From a virus, in IMG/VR virus record IMGVR_UViG_3300034107_000136, positions 1 through 64,000 of that record: DNA of 64,000 bases; one strand, 5' to 3'. The translations under genes and the position numbers were made by a program. How positions within the stretch are numbered: position 1 is the first letter of the stretch; each line of letters begins with the position of its first letter. The notes under the pieces were generated by a model that saw nothing but the letters and a program-made list of their open reading frames with translations, was not told the DNA's origin and ran no database searches. Positions 1 to 5,338 of this stretch are shown here, piece after piece.

Positions 1-151
1 GATCAAACGCACTGTTGTCACGCTTGAGCGAATGGCACAAGGTATCAAGCACCATGTTAAACATATCCATTGCTGCCTCGCCGTGATAGATGGCATAGTT
101 CCAGTCAATGGCTAGATCGGCTGCCAGAGTTACATAGTCTTTGCGGCTCAT
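1..151 (-). CDS. Small hypothetical protein, runs off the window (MSRKDYVTLAADLAIDW...KRDNSAFD)
   Basis: Manual translation; GAAAGG SD; array promoter at ~191. Confidence 0.8.
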   Translation of the reverse strand, partial: MSRKDYVTLAADLAIDWNYAIYHGEAAMDMFNMVLDTLCHSLKRDNSAFD

Positions 152-223
152 TTTGTGCCTTTCATTAGGTGATGACGTAAGTCTAACACGGGGGTGTGAC
201 ATTGGCCCGGGGCGGGGGGACGC

Positions 224-412
224 CTAAGCGTCCCACCCAAATAGATGACCTTCCATAGCGGCATCCTCAGCAAAGATATCGCCTTGGGGCCAAGGGTCTT
301 CCTGCTCATCAGCATCGGCCTCATCGGACCAAGTGTCCTCAGCGTGATCGCCATAGTCTGCCCACACGTCGGCATCGGCAACGGTTTCGGTATCCCACAG
401 GGTGCTGAACAT
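224..412 (-). CDS. 62-aa highly acidic protein (DNA-mimic candidate)
   Basis: 20 D/E, 0 K/R, 5 W; GAAAGG SD; promoter at ~451. Confidence 0.8.
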   Translation of the reverse strand: MFSTLWDTETVADADVWADYGDHAEDTWSDEADADEQEDPWPQGDIFAEDAAMEGHLFGWDA

Positions 413-562
413 GGTGTTCCTTTCATCGAAGTTAGCGTAAGCGTATCACGAGGGTCTGACATTGCGGCCCGGGCTGTTCGGTGTTCGGTATTGACCGAAC
501 AGCAGAACGGCAGTAAAATACTGGTCCATACATAAAGCGATAATACAAGAAAACACCCGGGC

Positions 563-751
563 CTAGTGCCTCCCGCAATGGGCATGGCCCTTTCGGCACT
601 CAAAGAAATCAGATGAGTAGTCTTCCTCATCAATGCTCTCAGGCATGGTGGCCTCAGCAGGGTAGAGATAGGAGCAACCCTTCTCAGCATAGTTCCAAGC
701 GGAACCGCAGACGCATCCAAACGATGCCTTGTCTAGGTGATGAGCGAACAT
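563..751 (-). CDS. 62-aa Cys/His-rich protein ending DFFECRKGHAHCGRH
   Basis: ATG 751 with CAACGAAAGG SD (the track start at 883 runs through the promoter); C-terminus paralogous to 3366-3476 and 3728-3838. Confidence 0.8.
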   Translation of the reverse strand: MFAHHLDKASFGCVCGSAWNYAEKGCSYLYPAEATMPESIDEEDYSSDFFECRKGHAHCGRH

Positions 752-815
752 TTTGTACCCTTTCGTTGAACGTAACGTAAGCCTATCACAGGGGTCTGAC
801 ATTGGCCCGGGTGGG

Positions 816-974
816 CTATGGTAGCCCCACCTCCTTGGCAAAGGCATACGCCTGCTTATAGGTGGCAAACATACGGATTTCACCCGTGTCCACGTTCATC
901 ACATCCCAAGGGGTTTCAAGCACGAAGCAGCCAAAAGAGACAGCAAGGCCATTGACAGGGACACCGTACCACAT
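816..974 (-). CDS. 52-aa hypothetical (MWYGVPVNG...MFATYKQAYAFAKEVGLP)
   Basis: Manual translation; GGAGG SD; stop next to CCCGGG 806. Confidence 0.7.
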   Translation of the reverse strand: MWYGVPVNGLAVSFGCFVLETPWDVMNVDTGEIRMFATYKQAYAFAKEVGLP

Positions 975-1048
975 AATTCCTCCAAAACTGGGATGCTTAT
1001 GTGGTCATCATAACACGGGGGTCTGACATTGCGGCCCGGGCGGTACTC

Positions 1049-1195
1049 CTAGCGGAGATACCAAGGGTCGTCTTCAGGGGTAGAGGTCACGCGGGTGAGG
1101 CGATTCTCATCAAGGGTATCAAAGTCAAGGTCGGCCATAGCCTGAACGATGGAGAGGAAGTGCTCGTCGTTTGCGTCTGCAAATGTTGTTGTCAT
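1049..1195 (-). CDS. 48-aa acidic leaderless protein (MTTTFADANDEHF...EDDPWYLR)
   Basis: ATG 6 nt after TATGAT; stop before CCCGGG 1035. Confidence 0.7.
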   Translation of the reverse strand: MTTTFADANDEHFLSIVQAMADLDFDTLDENRLTRVTSTPEDDPWYLR

Positions 1196-1277
1196 GGATT
1201 GATCATAGCATTGGGGTCTGACATTGTAAAGTCATAACGTAAGATGGACAGGAGCAAGGGTGCCCGGGGCGTGCTGG

Positions 1278-1460
1278 CTAGTGCCAGCCACAACCGCATA
1301 GGTCATAGTGCTCAGCATAGTGGGCGAGCGAACCCCAGTCAGGGGCAGAGAAGAAATCGGCAGGCGAGGTAGCGCACTGCATGGTAGGCTGGTCCTCGTC
1401 AATGATGGCGAGGTAGCCAAAGTGCTGCACCGTGGCTGCGTGCGCGAGAGTGAAGGTCAT
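1278..1460 (-). CDS. 60-aa hypothetical (MTFTLAHAA...DLCGCGWH)
   Basis: CAACGAAAGG SD; promoter at ~1498. Confidence 0.75.
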   Translation of the reverse strand: MTFTLAHAATVQHFGYLAIIDEDQPTMQCATSPADFFSAPDWGSLAHYAEHYDLCGCGWH

Positions 1461-1564
1461 GGGGGTTCCCTTTCGTTGGTTAGCCATAGCGTACCACGGG
1501 GGTCTGACATTGAGTGGTCTTAACGTAAGCACGCCTCAGAGCAAGCGCCCCGGGCCTAGCAAGT

Positions 1565-1690
1565 CTAAAGATCAGACTTGTCTAGGATCTCATAGTCCTC
1601 AGGGACAGCCTTGGAGTAGACGAACTCCAGAGCAGCGTCACGGCTGCTGAAGGACTTGACGAAGCGGGTCAAGTGGTAGACGCGGTACAT
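1565..1690 (-). CDS. 41-aa hypothetical (MYRVYHLTRFVKSFSSRDAALEFV...)
   Basis: GAAAGG SD; promoter at ~1734. Confidence 0.7.
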   Translation of the reverse strand: MYRVYHLTRFVKSFSSRDAALEFVYSKAVPEDYEILDKSDL

Positions 1691-1761
1691 GGGCGTTCCT
1701 TTCGTAGGTTTCTTATAGCGTAAGCGTACCATAGGGGTCTGACATTACCCGGGCCTTTCGG

Positions 1762-1902
1762 CTACTTGAAAATGGTCCCAGCGGTCAGCATCTCATAGCC
1801 GCAGGTTGAGCAGCGCAGCATGTAGCCCGTGATGAAATTCTCAAGGGTGTGGAAGCAAGAGTCGTTGCCAAGGGACAGGGGCGGGAGCGTCAATGTGATC
1901 AT
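1762..1902 (-). CDS. 46-aa leaderless zinc-ribbon-like peptide (CFH...CSTC)
   Basis: ATG 6 nt after TAGGCT. Confidence 0.7.
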   Translation of the reverse strand: MITLTLPPLSLGNDSCFHTLENFITGYMLRCSTCGYEMLTAGTIFK

Positions 1903-1948
1903 GGCGTAAGCCTATCATAAGGGTCTGACATTGGCTGGCCCGGGCCTC

Positions 1949-2101
1949 CTAGTAGAGGGTTTCAAAGATGCGATAGCCTGAACGATCAGGGAAGGAAATC
2001 TTGTTGGTAGCCAAGGCGTTTTCAGCCTCAGCCCTAGTCTTGAAGGTAGCGTAGTTGGTAGCGTTGGAACGGGGGGACAGGATTTCGTAGATGATGATCA
2101 T
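1949..2101 (-). CDS. 50-aa leaderless protein MIIIYEILSPRSNATNYATF...
   Basis: Paralog of 3019-3165; ATG 7 nt after TAAGGT. Confidence 0.8.
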   Translation of the reverse strand: MIIIYEILSPRSNATNYATFKTRAEAENALATNKISFPDRSGYRIFETLY

Positions 2102-2143
2102 AAGGTATACCTTAGCATAGGGGTCTGACACTGCCCGGGGCAC

Positions 2144-2206
2144 CTAGAACAGGTGAATGTTACTAAGTGCCACCACAACTATGATCACTAGGATAAGGAT
2201 ACGCAC
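2144..2206 (-). CDS. 20-aa hydrophobic peptide (VRILILVIIVVVALSNIHLF)
   Basis: GTG overlaps the upstream TAG; GAGGAGG SD; stop before CCCGGG 2134. Confidence 0.55.
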   Translation of the reverse strand: MRILILVIIVVVALSNIHLF

Positions 2207-2364
2207 TATACCTCCTCAAAATGATAGGTCAGCCAGTCGCGGTCACGGCAGTTCAACTTATTCAGGTGAAGGCCAGCGGCAATCTGAGCACCGCGAAGGG
2301 TGCGGTACTCACCAACGGTGATGACGGGGGCGTGGTGGATGCTGGTGTAAGTAACTTTGATCAT
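2206..2364 (-). CDS. 52-aa leaderless protein (MIKVTYTSIHH...WLTYHFEEV)
   Basis: ATG 6 nt after TAGTCT. Confidence 0.7.
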   Translation of the reverse strand: MIKVTYTSIHHAPVITVGEYRTLRGAQIAAGLHLNKLNCRDRDWLTYHFEEV

Positions 2365-2406
2365 AACGTAAGACTAGCATGGGGGTCTGACATTGACCCG
2401 GGCCTC

Positions 2407-2547
2407 CTACACCTCCATGCATTCGCAGAGGATGCAGATGCCAGTAGCCATCTCCCAGCCCTCTAGGCTATCTTTGCACACCGTGCAGCGTGCGTGGGTG
2501 GTGGGCACAAAATCAGTGTCCATCTCGAAGTCGATGTCAATGCTCAT
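2407..2547 (-). CDS. 46-aa CxxC-CxxC zinc-finger-like peptide (CTVC...CILC)
   Basis: CAACGAAAGG SD; promoter at ~2592. Confidence 0.75.
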   Translation of the reverse strand: MSIDIDFEMDTDFVPTTHARCTVCKDSLEGWEMATGICILCECMEV

Positions 2548-2617
2548 CGGGGCATCCTTTCGTTGGTGTCTTATAACGTAAGACTAGCAGAGGGGTCTGA
2601 CATTCCCGGGTTGCCTC

Positions 2618-2767
2618 CTACCACATCCACCCCGTGTACTTCTCCCAGTCAGCGAGGGTCATGACCCCCTTGTATTCACCGCAGAGGTAGCAGACCTTGC
2701 CGTCAGGCACCACCTCATCGCAGTAGCAGCAAACGAACTCTGGCATCTCAATCTCGGTGATCATCAT
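2618..2767 (-). CDS. 49-aa leaderless CxxC-CxxC peptide (MMITEIEMPEFVCCYC...CYLC...)
   Basis: ATG 6 nt after TACGAT. Confidence 0.75.
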   Translation of the reverse strand: MMITEIEMPEFVCCYCDEVVPDGKVCYLCGEYKGVMTLADWEKYTGWMW

Positions 2768-2773
2768 ACGATG

Positions 2774-2797
2774 ATCGTAGCACAGGGGTCTGACATT
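2774..2797 (-). promoter_or_regulatory. Representative array promoter AATGTCAGACCCCTGTGC-TACGAT (extended -10), leaderless ATG 6 nt downstream
   Basis: Same geometry across the units. -10 variants include TAGACT, TACGAT, TATGAT, TAAGAT, TAGAAT, each preceded by TGn. Confidence 0.8.
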
Positions 2798-2806
2798 GCC
2801 CGGGGC

Positions 2807-2974
2807 CTAGCGCACCTCCCAATCAGAGAGGGGGGCGAGGCGCTCATTGGAATTGAGGTAGAGGTCCATCAACTCCAACTCCATAGGGGTGAGGTAGGGC
2901 ACTGAGAATGAGGGGGGTGCATCCCACGCGGCAGGCATAGCAGGGGCAAGGGCTGGGGTTTCGGTGATCATCAT
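2807..2974 (-). CDS. 55-aa leaderless Pro-rich protein (MMITETPALAP...DWEVR)
   Basis: ATG 6 nt after TACGAT; TAG 2 nt from CCCGGG 2799. Confidence 0.7.
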   Translation of the reverse strand: MMITETPALAPAMPAAWDAPPSFSVPYLTPMELELMDLYLNSNERLAPLSDWEVR

Positions 2975-3018
2975 AGATTGATCGTAGCATAGGGGTCTGA
3001 CAGCCGACCCGGGCCTTT

Positions 3019-3165
3019 CTAGTAGAGGAATTGGAAGATGCGGTAGCCCTGCATCTCTGGGAAGCGGGTAGGGTCAGCCAGAGCAGCCTTGGCCTCAGCC
3101 AGAGTTCTGAAGGTGGCATAGTTGGTAGCCTTGGGACGGGGGGACAGAATCTCGTAGATGATCAT
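3019..3165 (-). CDS. 48-aa leaderless protein MIIYEILSPRPKATNYATF...
   Basis: Paralog of 1949-2101. Confidence 0.8.
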   Translation of the reverse strand: MIIYEILSPRPKATNYATFRTLAEAKAALADPTRFPEMQGYRIFQFLY

Positions 3166-3203
3166 AAGATCATCGTAGCAGAGGGGTCTGACATCGCCCG
3201 GGG

Positions 3204-3323
3204 CTACTCAACGCACCCCCCGCAGTAGTCCCAGAAGCATAGGATGCGGTACTGCTCGCAGATGTAGCAGACACCCATGAGGGGCATAGGGCCAATGACT
3301 GGACGTTCTTTGGAGATGATCAT
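3204..3323 (-). CDS. 39-aa leaderless CxxC-CxxC peptide (CYIC...CGGC)
   Basis: ATG 6 nt after TACGAT. Confidence 0.7.
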   Translation of the reverse strand: MIISKERPVIGPMPLMGVCYICEQYRILCFWDYCGGCVE

Positions 3324-3365
3324 ACGAGCATCGTAGCATGGGGGTGTGACACTGGCCCGGGCCTC

Positions 3366-3476
3366 CTAGTGCCTCGCGCAGAATGCGTGGCCCTTGCGGC
3401 ACTCAAAAAAGTCAGGCGAGTAGTACTCGTCATCAAGGGTAGTAGGGACATGGGCTACGTTCTCATTGATCATCAT
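3366..3476 (-). CDS. 36-aa leaderless peptide ...YYSPDFFECRKGHAFCARH
   Basis: Paralog of 3728-3838 and of the 563-751 C-terminus. Confidence 0.8.
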   Translation of the reverse strand: MMINENVAHVPTTLDDEYYSPDFFECRKGHAFCARH

Positions 3477-3517
3477 AAGAGTATCTTAGCATGGGGGTCT
3501 GACATTGCCCGGGGTGC

Positions 3518-3658
3518 TCAGGTACACATGACGCAGTAGTCGTCACGGTAGGAGCCTACTACCTCAAAGTCACATCCGCAACCTGTGGAGCAATCCGCTG
3601 CGTAGGTGTAGACGGTGTTGAAGGAATGGTCCCAGATGCCGATCTCGGTGATTGTCAT
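3518..3658 (-). CDS. 46-aa leaderless Cys-rich peptide (CSTGCGC...CVMC)
   Basis: ATG 6 nt after TACGCT. Confidence 0.7.
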   Translation of the reverse strand: MTITEIGIWDHSFNTVYTYAADCSTGCGCDFEVVGSYRDDYCVMCT

Positions 3659-3702
3659 AGCGTAAGCGTAGCAGGGGGGTCTGACAATCGACCCGGGCGC
3701 CC

Positions 3703-3729
3703 AAAAGGTGTTGGTACGCAACAACTTTT
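3703..3729. terminator. Inverted repeat AAAAGGTGTTG-gtacg-CAACAACTTTT
   Basis: Overlaps the stop of 3728-3838; near copy at 4074-4100. Confidence 0.5.
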
Positions 3730-3838
3730 AGTGCCTAGCGCAAAAGGCATGACCTTTGCGGCACTCGAAGAAATCAGGAGAGTAGTACTCGTCCTCATCA
3801 AGGGTAGTAGGGGCAACGACTGCGTTTTCTTTGATCAT
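3728..3838 (-). CDS. 36-aa leaderless peptide ...YYSPDFFECRKGHAFCARH
   Basis: Last 21 aa identical to 3366-3476 with synonymous codon differences. Confidence 0.8.
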   Translation of the reverse strand: MIKENAVVAPTTLDEDEYYSPDFFECRKGHAFCARH

Positions 3839-3949
3839 GGATTCATTCTAGCAGGGGGGTCTGACATTTGGGGGGGCATACAGACCTTCTTATGTAACGG
3901 TTGGGTAACGGTTGCCCGGGGCCTGAGGGTGGTCGCCCACCCCTAGGGG

Positions 3950-4030
3950 TTACTCGCTCCACATGCACGCGAGGGCAAAGACGCCGAGGGTGAAGGAAGC
4001 GAGGGCAAGTACCGCAACTGTGATCATCAT
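3950..4030 (-). CDS. 26-aa leaderless single-TM peptide (MMITVAVLALASFTLGVFALACMWSE)
   Basis: ATG 6 nt after TACGAT. Confidence 0.65.
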   Translation of the reverse strand: MMITVAVLALASFTLGVFALACMWSE

Positions 4031-4073
4031 AGATTGATCGTAGCAGAGGGGGCTGACAGTCGGCCCGGGGCCG

Positions 4074-4100
4074 AAAAGTTGTTGGTATGCAACAACTTTT
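4074..4100. terminator. Perfect 11-bp inverted repeat AAAAGTTGTTG-gtatg-CAACAACTTTT
   Basis: Lies downstream (minus strand) of the putative ncRNA. Confidence 0.55.
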
Positions 4101-4312
4101 TGTGTGGCCTGATCTCTAATCAGGTCTAGGTTTATTTGCTCTTGCGAGGCTCACCCTAGAGGTGGTCGATAAGTAGATAGAGAACAGTAACTGGCTGCCA
4201 GAGTTGGTCCTCATCATGAGCCTGACTTTTTGGGAATTGCAAAGGGTGGGGCTGGGGTTGCCAGACGTGTCCTTTGCTCCTGTGGTTCGGTTACTGCTCT
4301 CTATTTACTTAT
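4100..4312 (-). ncRNA. Putative structured non-coding RNA
   Basis: Promoter TTGCAT-17-CATAAT with the TGTCAGAC box in its spacer; 23-bp inverted repeat 4290-4312 / 4169-4191; internal stems; no SD-led or leaderless ORF. Confidence 0.6.
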
Positions 4313-4427
4313 AGAACTATTATGACATAGGCGTCTGACAGATGCAAGTTTTGGAGGGTTTTTCGGGATGATTAGAATCACATCGTAGGTACTTGACAAA
4401 TGGCTGCTGGAGGCCCGGGGCACCTCC

Positions 4428-4496
4428 CTAGAAGAGATGAACTTGCGTGGCAATAAGAAAAACCGTTGCTACGCAAAGGGTTATCGCTGCCCACAT
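4428..4496 (-). CDS. 22-aa hydrophobic peptide (MWAAITLCVATVFLIATQVHLF)
   Basis: GGAGG SD; second cistron after 4499-4693; ends HLF like 2144-2206. Confidence 0.55.
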   Translation of the reverse strand: MWAAITLCVATVFLIATQVHLF

Positions 4497-4498
4497 GC

Positions 4499-4693
4499 TC
4501 AACCTCCGAGGGTAGAGAGGTGAGCAACAATAGCACGACCATTGTCAGTACGTCGCTTGAATCCTGTAGACCCTTGCTCACCATACTGAATGTCATAGTA
4601 CTTATCTGCAAGCATGGCTACCCCGAAGGTAGAGAGCCAAGACAGTGCAAAGACAATAAGGGCAAAGAGCGAAACACCTGTATAGACGTTCAT
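4499..4693 (-). CDS. 64-aa protein with N-terminal TM helix
   Basis: CAACGAAAGG SD; promoter at ~4733. Confidence 0.75.
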   Translation of the reverse strand: MNVYTGVSLFALIVFALSWLSTFGVAMLADKYYDIQYGEQGSTGFKRRTDNGRAIVAHLSTLGG

Positions 4694-4747
4694 GATGTGC
4701 CTTTCGTTGTTGTTATGGTGCTAGCCTAGCAGGGGGGTGTGACACTC

Positions 4748-4897
4748 CTAGTGGAGGGGCCATTCCTCAATCATGAAACCCTCACTGCTATAGATTTCCT
4801 CTGAGGCTATAGCCTGCTCCATCCATGCTTGGGCTACCTCGCGTGATGCGAACATACGGATGGGGCCATCCCACATTTCAGATACTGAGTAGATCAT
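4748..4897 (-). CDS. 49-aa hypothetical (MIYSVSEMWDGPIRMFASREVAQAW...)
   Basis: CAACGAAAGG SD; promoter at ~4943. Confidence 0.75.
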   Translation of the reverse strand: MIYSVSEMWDGPIRMFASREVAQAWMEQAIASEEIYSSEGFMIEEWPLH

Positions 4898-4958
4898 TGT
4901 CTTGCCTTTCGTTGATTGCTTATTAGTTAGAGTCTAGCAGTAGGGTGTGACAGTGAGG

Positions 4959-5087
4959 CTAGCGGGTAGCCTGTGAGCACCAAGCGCACACACCATGTGC
5001 GTCAGTACGATGCCAGCCGCTAGGGGCTACCGTGCAAGCGACACCCTTCGGTGCGGTGCGGGCCTCAAGTGCGAACGATGAAATCAT
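4959..5087 (-). CDS. 42-aa Cys/His peptide (C..H..H..CAWC)
   Basis: CAACGAAAGG SD; promoter at ~5140. Confidence 0.7.
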   Translation of the reverse strand: MISSFALEARTAPKGVACTVAPSGWHRTDAHGVCAWCSQATR

Positions 5088-5338
5088 TTTCTTGCCTTTC
5101 GTTGTGTTTCCGTTTTTCCTTATGACGAAAGTCTAGCACGGGGGTCTGACACTTTTGACCATTTCAGGGCTTATTTTGAAATTCTTTTTTGTGGGCTACA
5201 TCACATGTGTGCGGTCTATTTTGGGCTTGACATTGCTTCAAAAGTGCGTATCGTACACCTCTAACATAAATTGTACTTTTAAAATATTTAAAGTTTAAAA
5301 TTTAATAAATCAAAATATATATATGGTATAATTTTAAA

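Follow-up and report, generated by a model that had tools for sequence, protein, structure and literature searches.

A Conserved Internal-Loop RNA Module in the Early Leaders of Uncultured Lake Phages, and a Candidate ORF-Less Leader Cassette That Carries It

Introduction

Phage early transcripts, among them those of the T7 early region, contain structured 5' stabilizers and RNase III sites. Signals for processive antitermination, such as putL/putR of HK022 and nutL/nutR of lambda, act in nascent phage RNA; they suppress terminators further downstream and bind either RNA polymerase or an N-like protein together with Nus factors. In HK022, the put element is about 70 nt long and folds into two stem-loops; at PL it follows the promoter directly, and at PR it is found about 270 nt past the start (PMC9378689). 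A different kind of early element is found in Cluster K mycobacteriophages, where the 13 bp SAS, GGGATAGGAGCCC, is located 3–7 bp before the start codon, contains the SD, and occurs 11–19 times per genome; for the ESAS inverted repeats, the authors found no support for an RNA hairpin (PMC3203893).

The DNA analyzed here (the window, 64,000 nt) is the left 64 kb of a 101,709 bp IMG/VR virus contig. Its early region includes an ORF-less unit that carries a short RNA module with a second hairpin, H2, directly behind it:

4125–4160, minus strand: conserved leader module, 36 nt (model R1, 60.3 bits, E = 1e-13)
4108–4124, minus strand: hairpin H2, CCUGAU-UAGAG-AUCAGG, with CCACAC (4107–4102) next to it

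Module and H2 together span about 53 nt, compared with about 70 nt for the two stem-loops of put. We liken the module to put and nut by placement and architecture, not by sequence or structural homology: across related phage contigs it has invariant unpaired nucleotides and, where a second hairpin follows, would be part of a compact two-stem-loop RNA of about 55–70 nt. It is also tied to promoters rather than to genes, and a genome has it once or twice, either close behind an early promoter or between the first small ORF and a terminator. As with put, placement is either promoter-proximal (42 of 83 instances) or after an ORF stop (37 of 83). Unlike put and nut, most instances have no terminator nearby, some phages have nested, two-fold symmetric copies or three copies per 3 kb, and the likely host is actinobacterial; we know of no put/nut-type system described in actinobacteria. 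With SAS/ESAS, the module shares an association with the 5' regions of a subset of unrelated non-structural actinophage genes and an absence from host genomes, but it is not the same element, as it differs in sequence, position (upstream of the SD or after ORFs), copy number (0–2) and covariation. Being a leader or intercistronic hairpin with an internal loop, it is also similar to the stabilizers and RNase III sites of phage early transcripts. Its helices (4–12 and 3–7 bp across instances) are, however, too short for RNase III, and a 26 bp stem found elsewhere in the unit is long enough as a substrate but is not conserved.

Results

Phage, Probable Host and Early Array

The genome is of the siphovirus type and encodes a tape-measure protein of 3,096 aa, along with a portal, protease and major capsid protein that show about 44% identity to their counterparts in large Streptomyces phages. 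The host is probably a freshwater actinobacterium, since the phage carries a WhiB-family gene (genome positions 79304–79480, outside the window; 40 bits, above the Pfam cut-off). The same host is suggested by the signals of the early genes, which have SDs of the type GAAAGG, promoters that are typically of the extended −10 kind with no −35, and frequent leaderless starts, and also by the presence of the phage in more than 20 lake-water metagenomes.

Positions 1–5160 hold an array of about 23 minus-strand cassettes with a shared promoter box, and the ORF-less unit is cassette no. 4 counted from the array head. The G+C content of the early array is about 55%, against about 40% for the phage. CCCGGG junctions add to the cassette-like appearance of the array, and natural strains represented in DNA runs X16 and X21 differ by whole cassettes within window positions 3400–5000, and the joints include 3920 to 4424, 3513 to 3729, 4100 to 4716 and 4484 to 4698. 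Reshuffling of the array at cassette borders takes place inside one lake population.

Promoter and Leader Start

All elements of the unit are on the minus strand and lie where the initial annotation had placed them. Its 5' part comprises the following features, in which L251 and L271 are lake metagenome contigs with orthologous units:

4348–4419, minus strand: conserved upstream region, about 85% identical to the sequence upstream of the orthologous L251 and L271 promoters
4319–4347, minus strand: promoter, as read from the sequence, orthologous to the TTGCAA-box-TGGTAGGCT promoters of L251 and L271
4294–4312, minus strand: predicted transcription start (about 4312, 7 nt after the −10) and leader start AUAAGUAAAUAGAGAGCAG

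The upstream region includes a CCCGGG junction (4414–4419), a TTGTCAAG motif and the palindrome TGATT-nn-AATCA (about 4370–4381). A CRP/GlxR-like palindrome, TGTGA-N6-TCACA, is found about 50–70 nt upstream of module-bearing promoters in L009, L035, L066, L251 and L271, and may be an operator or activator site; the TGATT-nn-AATCA of the window (about 4366–4386, minus strand) is a degenerate version of it. The promoter consists of a −35 (TTGCAT, 4347–4342), a 17 nt spacer that carries the TGTCAGACGCC box of the array (4340–4330), and a TG-extended −10 (TGtCATAAT, 4327–4319). It had been described as the most canonical promoter of the array and is the sole box promoter with a recognizable −35; its score is below the threshold of a simple consensus scan. 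The leader start also forms most of the 5' arm of a long stem (see below). In 13 of its 19 nt it matches both L251 and L271, and the leaders of other phages begin alike.

The Conserved Internal-Loop Module

In the window, helix P1 (UCUAGG/CCUAGA) is formed by 4160–4155 with 4130–4125, and encloses a loop strand, GUGAGC (4154–4149), helix P2 with its loop, CUC-GCAA-GAG (4148–4139), and an opposite loop strand, CAAAUAAA (4138–4131). More generally, the module runs from a P1 of variable sequence through an (R)UGAGC strand, P2 and a CAAAUAA(N) strand back into P1. P2 begins with C-U...A-G and usually ends in a GNRA loop (GCAA, GAAA or GAGA), and 13 loop nucleotides are invariant.

With a covariance model built from nine sequences, 31 matches were obtained in 100 sources that had been chosen solely by their promoter box. 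Other loci added 56, and the distinct instances across related phage contigs number 83. Paired cells make up 86–91% of the alignments, compared to 59–61% in shuffles and 21–54% when partners were slid. Changes on both sides are seen in all nine P1 pairs and in the sole variable P2 pair, and the covariation score was reached by none of 500 shuffles. These alignments were fitted to the model, and the same compensatory changes are visible in plain regex and MAFFT listings. By this comparative evidence the module is a real RNA structure. The initial annotation had proposed a covariation analysis of homologues, with the long stem in mind; covariation proved to be strong in the module, while the long stem is absent from the orthologues. 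In many phages, two 16-mers, UGAGCCUAGCAAAUAA, face each other across a self-complementary CUAG/CUAG helix, and this middle helix of the dimer covaries as well, with CUAC on one side accompanied by GUAG on the other. Nested double and triple forms occur, the loop being unchanged in the nested and two-fold arrangements, and some contigs have three modules within about 3 kb.

An Rfam search, another of the proposed checks, found no family that matches the unit with E up to 10. Specifically, the Rfam 15 covariance models gave no match in the window at the gathering score, only chance-level matches in 3950–4450 at E ≤ 10, and none in six orthologous or dimer loci at E ≤ 1. When 185,579 prokaryote genomes were searched, the dimer pattern was present on just four short MAG contigs, indicating that the element belongs to phages; these contigs are of discordant taxa and give no clue to the host. 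As far as sequence comparison goes, the module is a new RNA element, uncatalogued in Rfam and strongly conserved among related lake phages.

Related genomes of about 100 kb carry 0–2 copies (E < 0.01), and the 101.7 kb genome studied here has exactly one. In the 42 promoter-proximal instances, an extended −10 promoter is located less than 80 nt upstream, and the module typically begins 16–45 nt after the predicted start; in the window this distance is 152 nt because of an insert of 132 nt. Behind the 37 instances that directly follow an ORF stop there is often a small hairpin, and behind some post-ORF modules a terminator made of inverted DnaA-box-like sequences. An SD and ATG are found within 130 nt downstream in 39 of the 83. 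About half of all instances have a second hairpin 0–8 nt after the module, and its sequence differs between groups. Six contigs (L004, L027, L041, L050, L068 and L090) share the layout of the window, i.e., promoter, leader, module, second box-type promoter and gene. Since the genes downstream of modules code for unrelated tiny proteins, the element goes with promoters and not with genes.

About 20 IMG/VR loci (e.g., L134:850–882, L156:3421–3453, L168:2000–2032) hold a reduced form, in which a 5 bp ACUGG/CCAGU helix closes a 13 nt loop, UGAGCCAAAUAAA, and is followed by a U run; judged by its layout, this looks like an intrinsic terminator with the two strands of the module as its loop. Related phages also have many copies of the DnaA-box-like TTATCCACA between early cassettes (L236:1400–1500, L236:2380–2480 on the minus strand, L235:1640–1760, L249, L252 and L256), and some inverted pairs of it form a terminator-like 10 bp hairpin followed by UUUU. 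The module loop may resemble the 'UAA/GAN' loop motif, a likeness that we do not claim. A K-turn, a CRISPR-repeat mimic, a type III antitoxin (ToxI-like) mimic, a tmRNA-like tag and a preQ1-like aptamer were also considered, and on inspection the sequence features fit none of them.

Orthologous Units and the 3' End

Units orthologous to that of the window were found in L251 (same as L266), in L271, and as unit B of L253. Like the window, they have the conserved upstream region and promoter, the first 19 nt of the leader, P1 (UCUAGG/CCUAGA), the CUC-GCAA-GAG fold, H2 and CCACAC. H2 is kept in L251 (loop UGAAG), in L271 (a different loop, and one A-U pair changed to G·U) and in unit B of L253. 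The module of L251 is identical to that of the window, although the promoter regions differ by about 15–20%. All of the orthologues are without 4293–4162, and in the alignment with L251 and L271 the insertion in the window is clean. Two leaders of L253 (L253:400–720 and L253:1480–1720, minus strand) carry inserts that contain internal tandem repeats and measure about 250 and 190 nt, and because these occupy the same position as the 132 nt of the window, the site between leader start and module appears to be a variable expansion point. In L251, H2 is followed by an SD and a small ORF; in their place the window has:

4074–4100, minus strand: terminator-like hairpin (−10.6 kcal/mol, z = −3.5), then a CCCGGG junction (4069–4064)

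On this comparison, the unit would be a leader cassette minus its gene, which has been replaced by the hairpin, and plus a 5' stem domain. We are confident of this anatomy and orthology.

The three small hairpins listed in the initial annotation, i.e., CUC-GCAA-GAG (4148–4139), CCUGAU/AUCAGG (4124–4108) and 4100–4074, are all present. The last can be drawn as an 11 bp A/U-rich stem or as 7 bp followed by UUUU, with three G-C pairs in the core stem; it has four U only, and was not called by a terminator scan. The hairpin at 4064–4104 is 85% identical to another at 3693–3733, and each adjoins CCCGGG; the latter ends a 36 aa gene and the former the ORF-less unit. This pair suggests that 3' cassette ends are exchanged by recombination. 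The ORF-less state could simply be a deletion remnant, with a hairpin after H2 that looks recombined from the 3' end of another cassette.

The unit had been described as having no credible ORF, which is nearly right. There is one candidate, with no good SD:

4116–4217, minus strand: 33 aa ATG ORF, overlapping the 3' arm of the long stem, the module and half of H2

This ORF is probably not translated, judging by its context, and it is very unlikely that the unit is an mRNA for the 33 aa peptide (4217–4119) with a structured leader. Its start, AUGAUGAGGACC, does resemble the AUGAUGAUCACC starts of leaderless genes in the array, but the AUG is internal, so that it cannot be leaderless, and a GAAAGG-type SD is missing. 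The substitutions at 4167, 4176 and 4179 in a related strain (run X22, see below) fall on third codon positions and are synonymous, a pattern with a chance probability of about 0.09 (n = 5 substitutions). Further against translation, the frame crosses both the 26 bp stem and the module, the module is untranslated in every orthologue, and tblastn detected no relatives in 2.4 Mb of related DNA.

The Long Stem and the 132 nt Insert

The initial annotation was built around a 23 bp stem that closes the 5' part of the predicted transcript. This stem is real: on the minus strand, 4312–4290 pairs with 4191–4169 through 21 Watson-Crick pairs, one A·C and one G·U. An inverted-repeat search extends it to 26 nt (arms 4315–4290 and 4191–4166, 88% complementary, 98 nt enclosed) when run with seed 7; the default seed of 9 misses it because the longest exact run is 7. 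No second such stem is found in the 64 kb window, and none appeared in 20 Markov-1 randomizations. The 256 nt RNA has an MFE of −87.4 kcal/mol (z = −5.8, with 0 of 200 shuffles as good), and pair probabilities in the long stem are 0.92–1.0. The enclosed 98 nt (4289–4192) fold at chance level (z = −0.40, 63 of 200 shuffles as good), and the fold signal of the 256 nt RNA comes from the terminal repeat alone. The inner stems that had been listed, GCAAAGG/CCUUUGC and CUGG/CCAG, do occur in the MFE structure but are not beyond chance, given that the shuffled sequences fold equally well. Most of the stem domain belongs to the insert:

4162–4293, minus strand: lineage-specific insert of 132 nt, absent from L251 and L271 and without DNA or protein similarity to the sequences searched

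The insert consists of the innermost part of the 5' arm, all 98 enclosed nt, the 3' arm (4191–4166), which repeats the window's own leader start in inverted orientation, and a short linker. As the defining feature of the unit the stem does not hold up, since it is part of an insert that orthologous units lack. A pattern for the 3' arm with two variable positions left open had no matches in IMG/VR, and the stem domain, compared by low-stringency BLAST with the remainder of its own genome, gave chance-level matches only. When the unit was compared with 120 promoter-selected loci and 23 related genomes of about 100 kb (BLAST and nhmmer), the stem domain was unmatched, and matches were confined to a 30 nt module, the terminator hairpin and the promoter box. 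The best six-frame tblastn match of the insert in 2.4 Mb of related DNA had an E of 0.94. Compensatory change in the stem had been expected; the data are two substitutions in a 94% identical strain, by which the mismatch was moved rather than cleanly compensated. Comparison beyond near-identical strains gives no support for selection on the long stem, and by the same alignments this eye-catching 23 bp stem is the least conserved part of the unit.

An AGGCUCA in the enclosed loop (4223–4217) exactly complements the invariant UGAGCCU of the module (4147–4153), both on the minus strand. This could be a pseudoknot that masks the module, or chance, for which the probability of such a 7-mer is about 1–15%, depending on the way of counting. 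Forcing the helix in a nested fold costs 17 kcal/mol; since the helix would be a pseudoknot with respect to the stem, a nested fold is no measure of it.

Two other explanations of the stem can be considered here. The first is that the inverted repeat acts at the DNA level, as a miniature transposable element, a cruciform or a recombination site, and would fit an insert that is present in some lineages and absent from others, in a cassette-like array with CCCGGG junctions. We regard it as highly improbable, as there is no second copy in its own genome, the 23 related genomes or IMG/VR, a target-site duplication cannot be seen, the resident leader start and not imported sequence supplies one of the arms, the repeat begins no more than 3 nt from the predicted transcription start, and one of the two non-Watson-Crick positions is a G·U, which pairs in RNA only. 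The second is an RNA of the retron msr/msd, 6S or Y RNA kind, to which a long, terminal-looking stem, an own promoter and the lack of an ORF would be suited. The comparison with retron a1/a2 arms fails because there is no reverse transcriptase, and because the 3' arm is internal with about 100 nt of conserved RNA beyond it. The initial annotation had correctly seen no reverse transcriptase in the window, and a profile search extends this to the whole 101.7 kb genome (no PF00078, RVT_1, at E ≤ 1; control genomes gave matches). The likeness to 6S RNA is not borne out either, with no Rfam match even at E ≤ 10 and no central bubble between paired termini, and a Y RNA (YrlA/Rsr) was rejected on the absence of PF05731 (TROVE/Ro) from the 101.7 kb genome and of any Rfam match. 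As orthologues also lack the stem, we consider an RNA of these kinds extremely improbable.

Transcription and Strain Variants

Record 16 of the lake metatranscriptome run X22 is a contig of 1,408 nt, about 94% identical to the window, whose first position is 4309, without a loose end; DNA contigs are continuous across this position. The predicted start near 4312 is supported by this contig, which begins 3 nt away (one study, an assembled contig, and DNA carry-over is possible). On the minus strand it reads through the 4100–4074 hairpin into at least four further cassettes. The evidence for transcription of the unit is weak but positive, the contigs being from one study with possible DNA carry-over. 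The RNA runs X22 and X23 both belong to this study and consist of contigs, so that the uncovered 4318–4641 is not evidence of silence.

The X22 variant is changed at 4165–4167, in the linker, and at 4086 and 4087, in the loop of the terminator-like hairpin. Within the stem, a change at 4176 turns the A·C mismatch into A-U, and one at 4179 turns an A-U into A·C, unless 4302 has also changed. The module, H2 and 4180–4264 are unchanged. The neighboring coding cassette differs by about 6–7%, with 17 changes in about 250 nt, compared with five listed changes in about 210 nt of the unit. In DNA runs X21 and X16, which are from the same lakes, there are strains without the unit (joint 3920 to 4424, with 3921–4423 missing), and the unit is therefore dispensable. 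Another joint in same-lake DNA runs, 4161 to 4360, suggests a module without the stem domain. By these joints, both unit and insert appear to be polymorphic in nature.

These data bear on whether the module works at the level of the message, as an exonuclease roadblock, a translation control or a cleavage tag for decay, with the ORF-less unit of the window a functionless or decaying remnant. The orthologues have an ORF after H2 where the window has a hairpin 85% identical to the 3' end of another cassette, the array is highly recombinogenic, with some strains lacking the unit, and the orphan insert folds like random sequence, all of which would agree with a remnant; 39 of 83 modules with an SD and ATG within 130 nt downstream, and placement at both 5' and 3' positions, would agree with a protective or targeting tag. 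On the other hand, the unit has kept its promoter, upstream region, module and H2 intact, its module is identical to that of L251, and it is less diverged than the neighboring coding cassette in the X22 variant. Zero to two copies per genome would be odd for a general mRNA tag, and thirteen invariant loop nucleotides favor specific recognition over a mere roadblock. Taking both sides together, we think this explanation unlikely.

The initial proposal of a structured phage sRNA, possibly a decoy, has been borne out in part: an ORF-less unit that would act at the RNA level, through a module with strong covariation, is retained, and the stem, which is not conserved, is not. As a trans-acting sRNA or decoy, a stable RNA of about 240 nt would titrate a factor that binds the module (of the host, the phage itself or a competing phage), or would base-pair through exposed sequences that serve as antisense seeds. 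The own promoter, missing ORF and terminator-like hairpin would be in keeping with this, a buried 5' end should make the RNA long-lived, the only module of the genome sits in this unit, and the AGGCUCA of the enclosed loop is an exact complement of the module's UGAGCCU. The terminator, however, is weak (four U, uncalled by the scan) and is read through in the X22 contig, relatives normally have the module in cis as part of mRNA leaders, and a 7-mer complement has a probability of about 1–15% by chance. A trans-acting role is, in our estimation, quite unlikely.

Discussion

The interpretation that we put forward, and hold to be evenly balanced between right and wrong, is that uncultured lake phages, probably actinophages, share a conserved early-leader cassette, of which the unit is a copy without an ORF. 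A sigma-70-type promoter with an extended −10 would start the RNA at about 4312, and the 5' end of this RNA would be locked in the 26 bp stem around 98 nt of orphan sequence. Close to the promoter, module and H2 would give the nascent RNA a signal that is recognized either by the polymerase directly or by a factor acting in trans, as with HK022 put and lambda nut, and that would control elongation and read-through into the downstream cassettes. Some of the RNA may stop at 4074 and so form a stable species of about 240 nt. The long stem would be an add-on that buries the 5' end, most plausibly as a shield from 5'-end-dependent RNases or as an RNase III site.

Control of elongation of the nut/put kind is tentative as a specific mechanism. 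It is favored by the link to promoters, the one or two copies per genome, the placement, and the invariant unpaired nucleotides, which suggest specific recognition; an antitermination role is not required by the anatomy, because most leader-class modules have no terminator nearby. The one hint of terminator suppression is the X22 contig, which passes the 4100–4074 hairpin. Going further, the module may be a previously unknown nascent-RNA signal of actinophages, by which the polymerase would be reprogrammed without a protein, as with put, or together with a phage protein, as with nut. In that case the unit of the window might be a 'loader' or decoy RNA for the signal, possibly interfering with the leaders of competing lake phages; this is speculative, and we consider it unlikely.

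What is new at this locus is the conserved leader module and not the stem. It is a compact RNA structure with unusually clean covariation, shared by many uncultured lake-phage contigs and nearly absent from prokaryote genomes. The locus also gives a view of leader evolution, since the site between leader start and module holds nothing, 132 nt, or about 190–250 nt, depending on the lineage, and one lineage has kept the RNA and lost the gene. Freshwater actinobacterial hosts are uncultured or hard to grow, and we know of no such early-control mechanism for their phages. If the module controls elongation or the fate of early mRNA, it would offer a handle on early gene control in the phages of freshwater actinobacteria.
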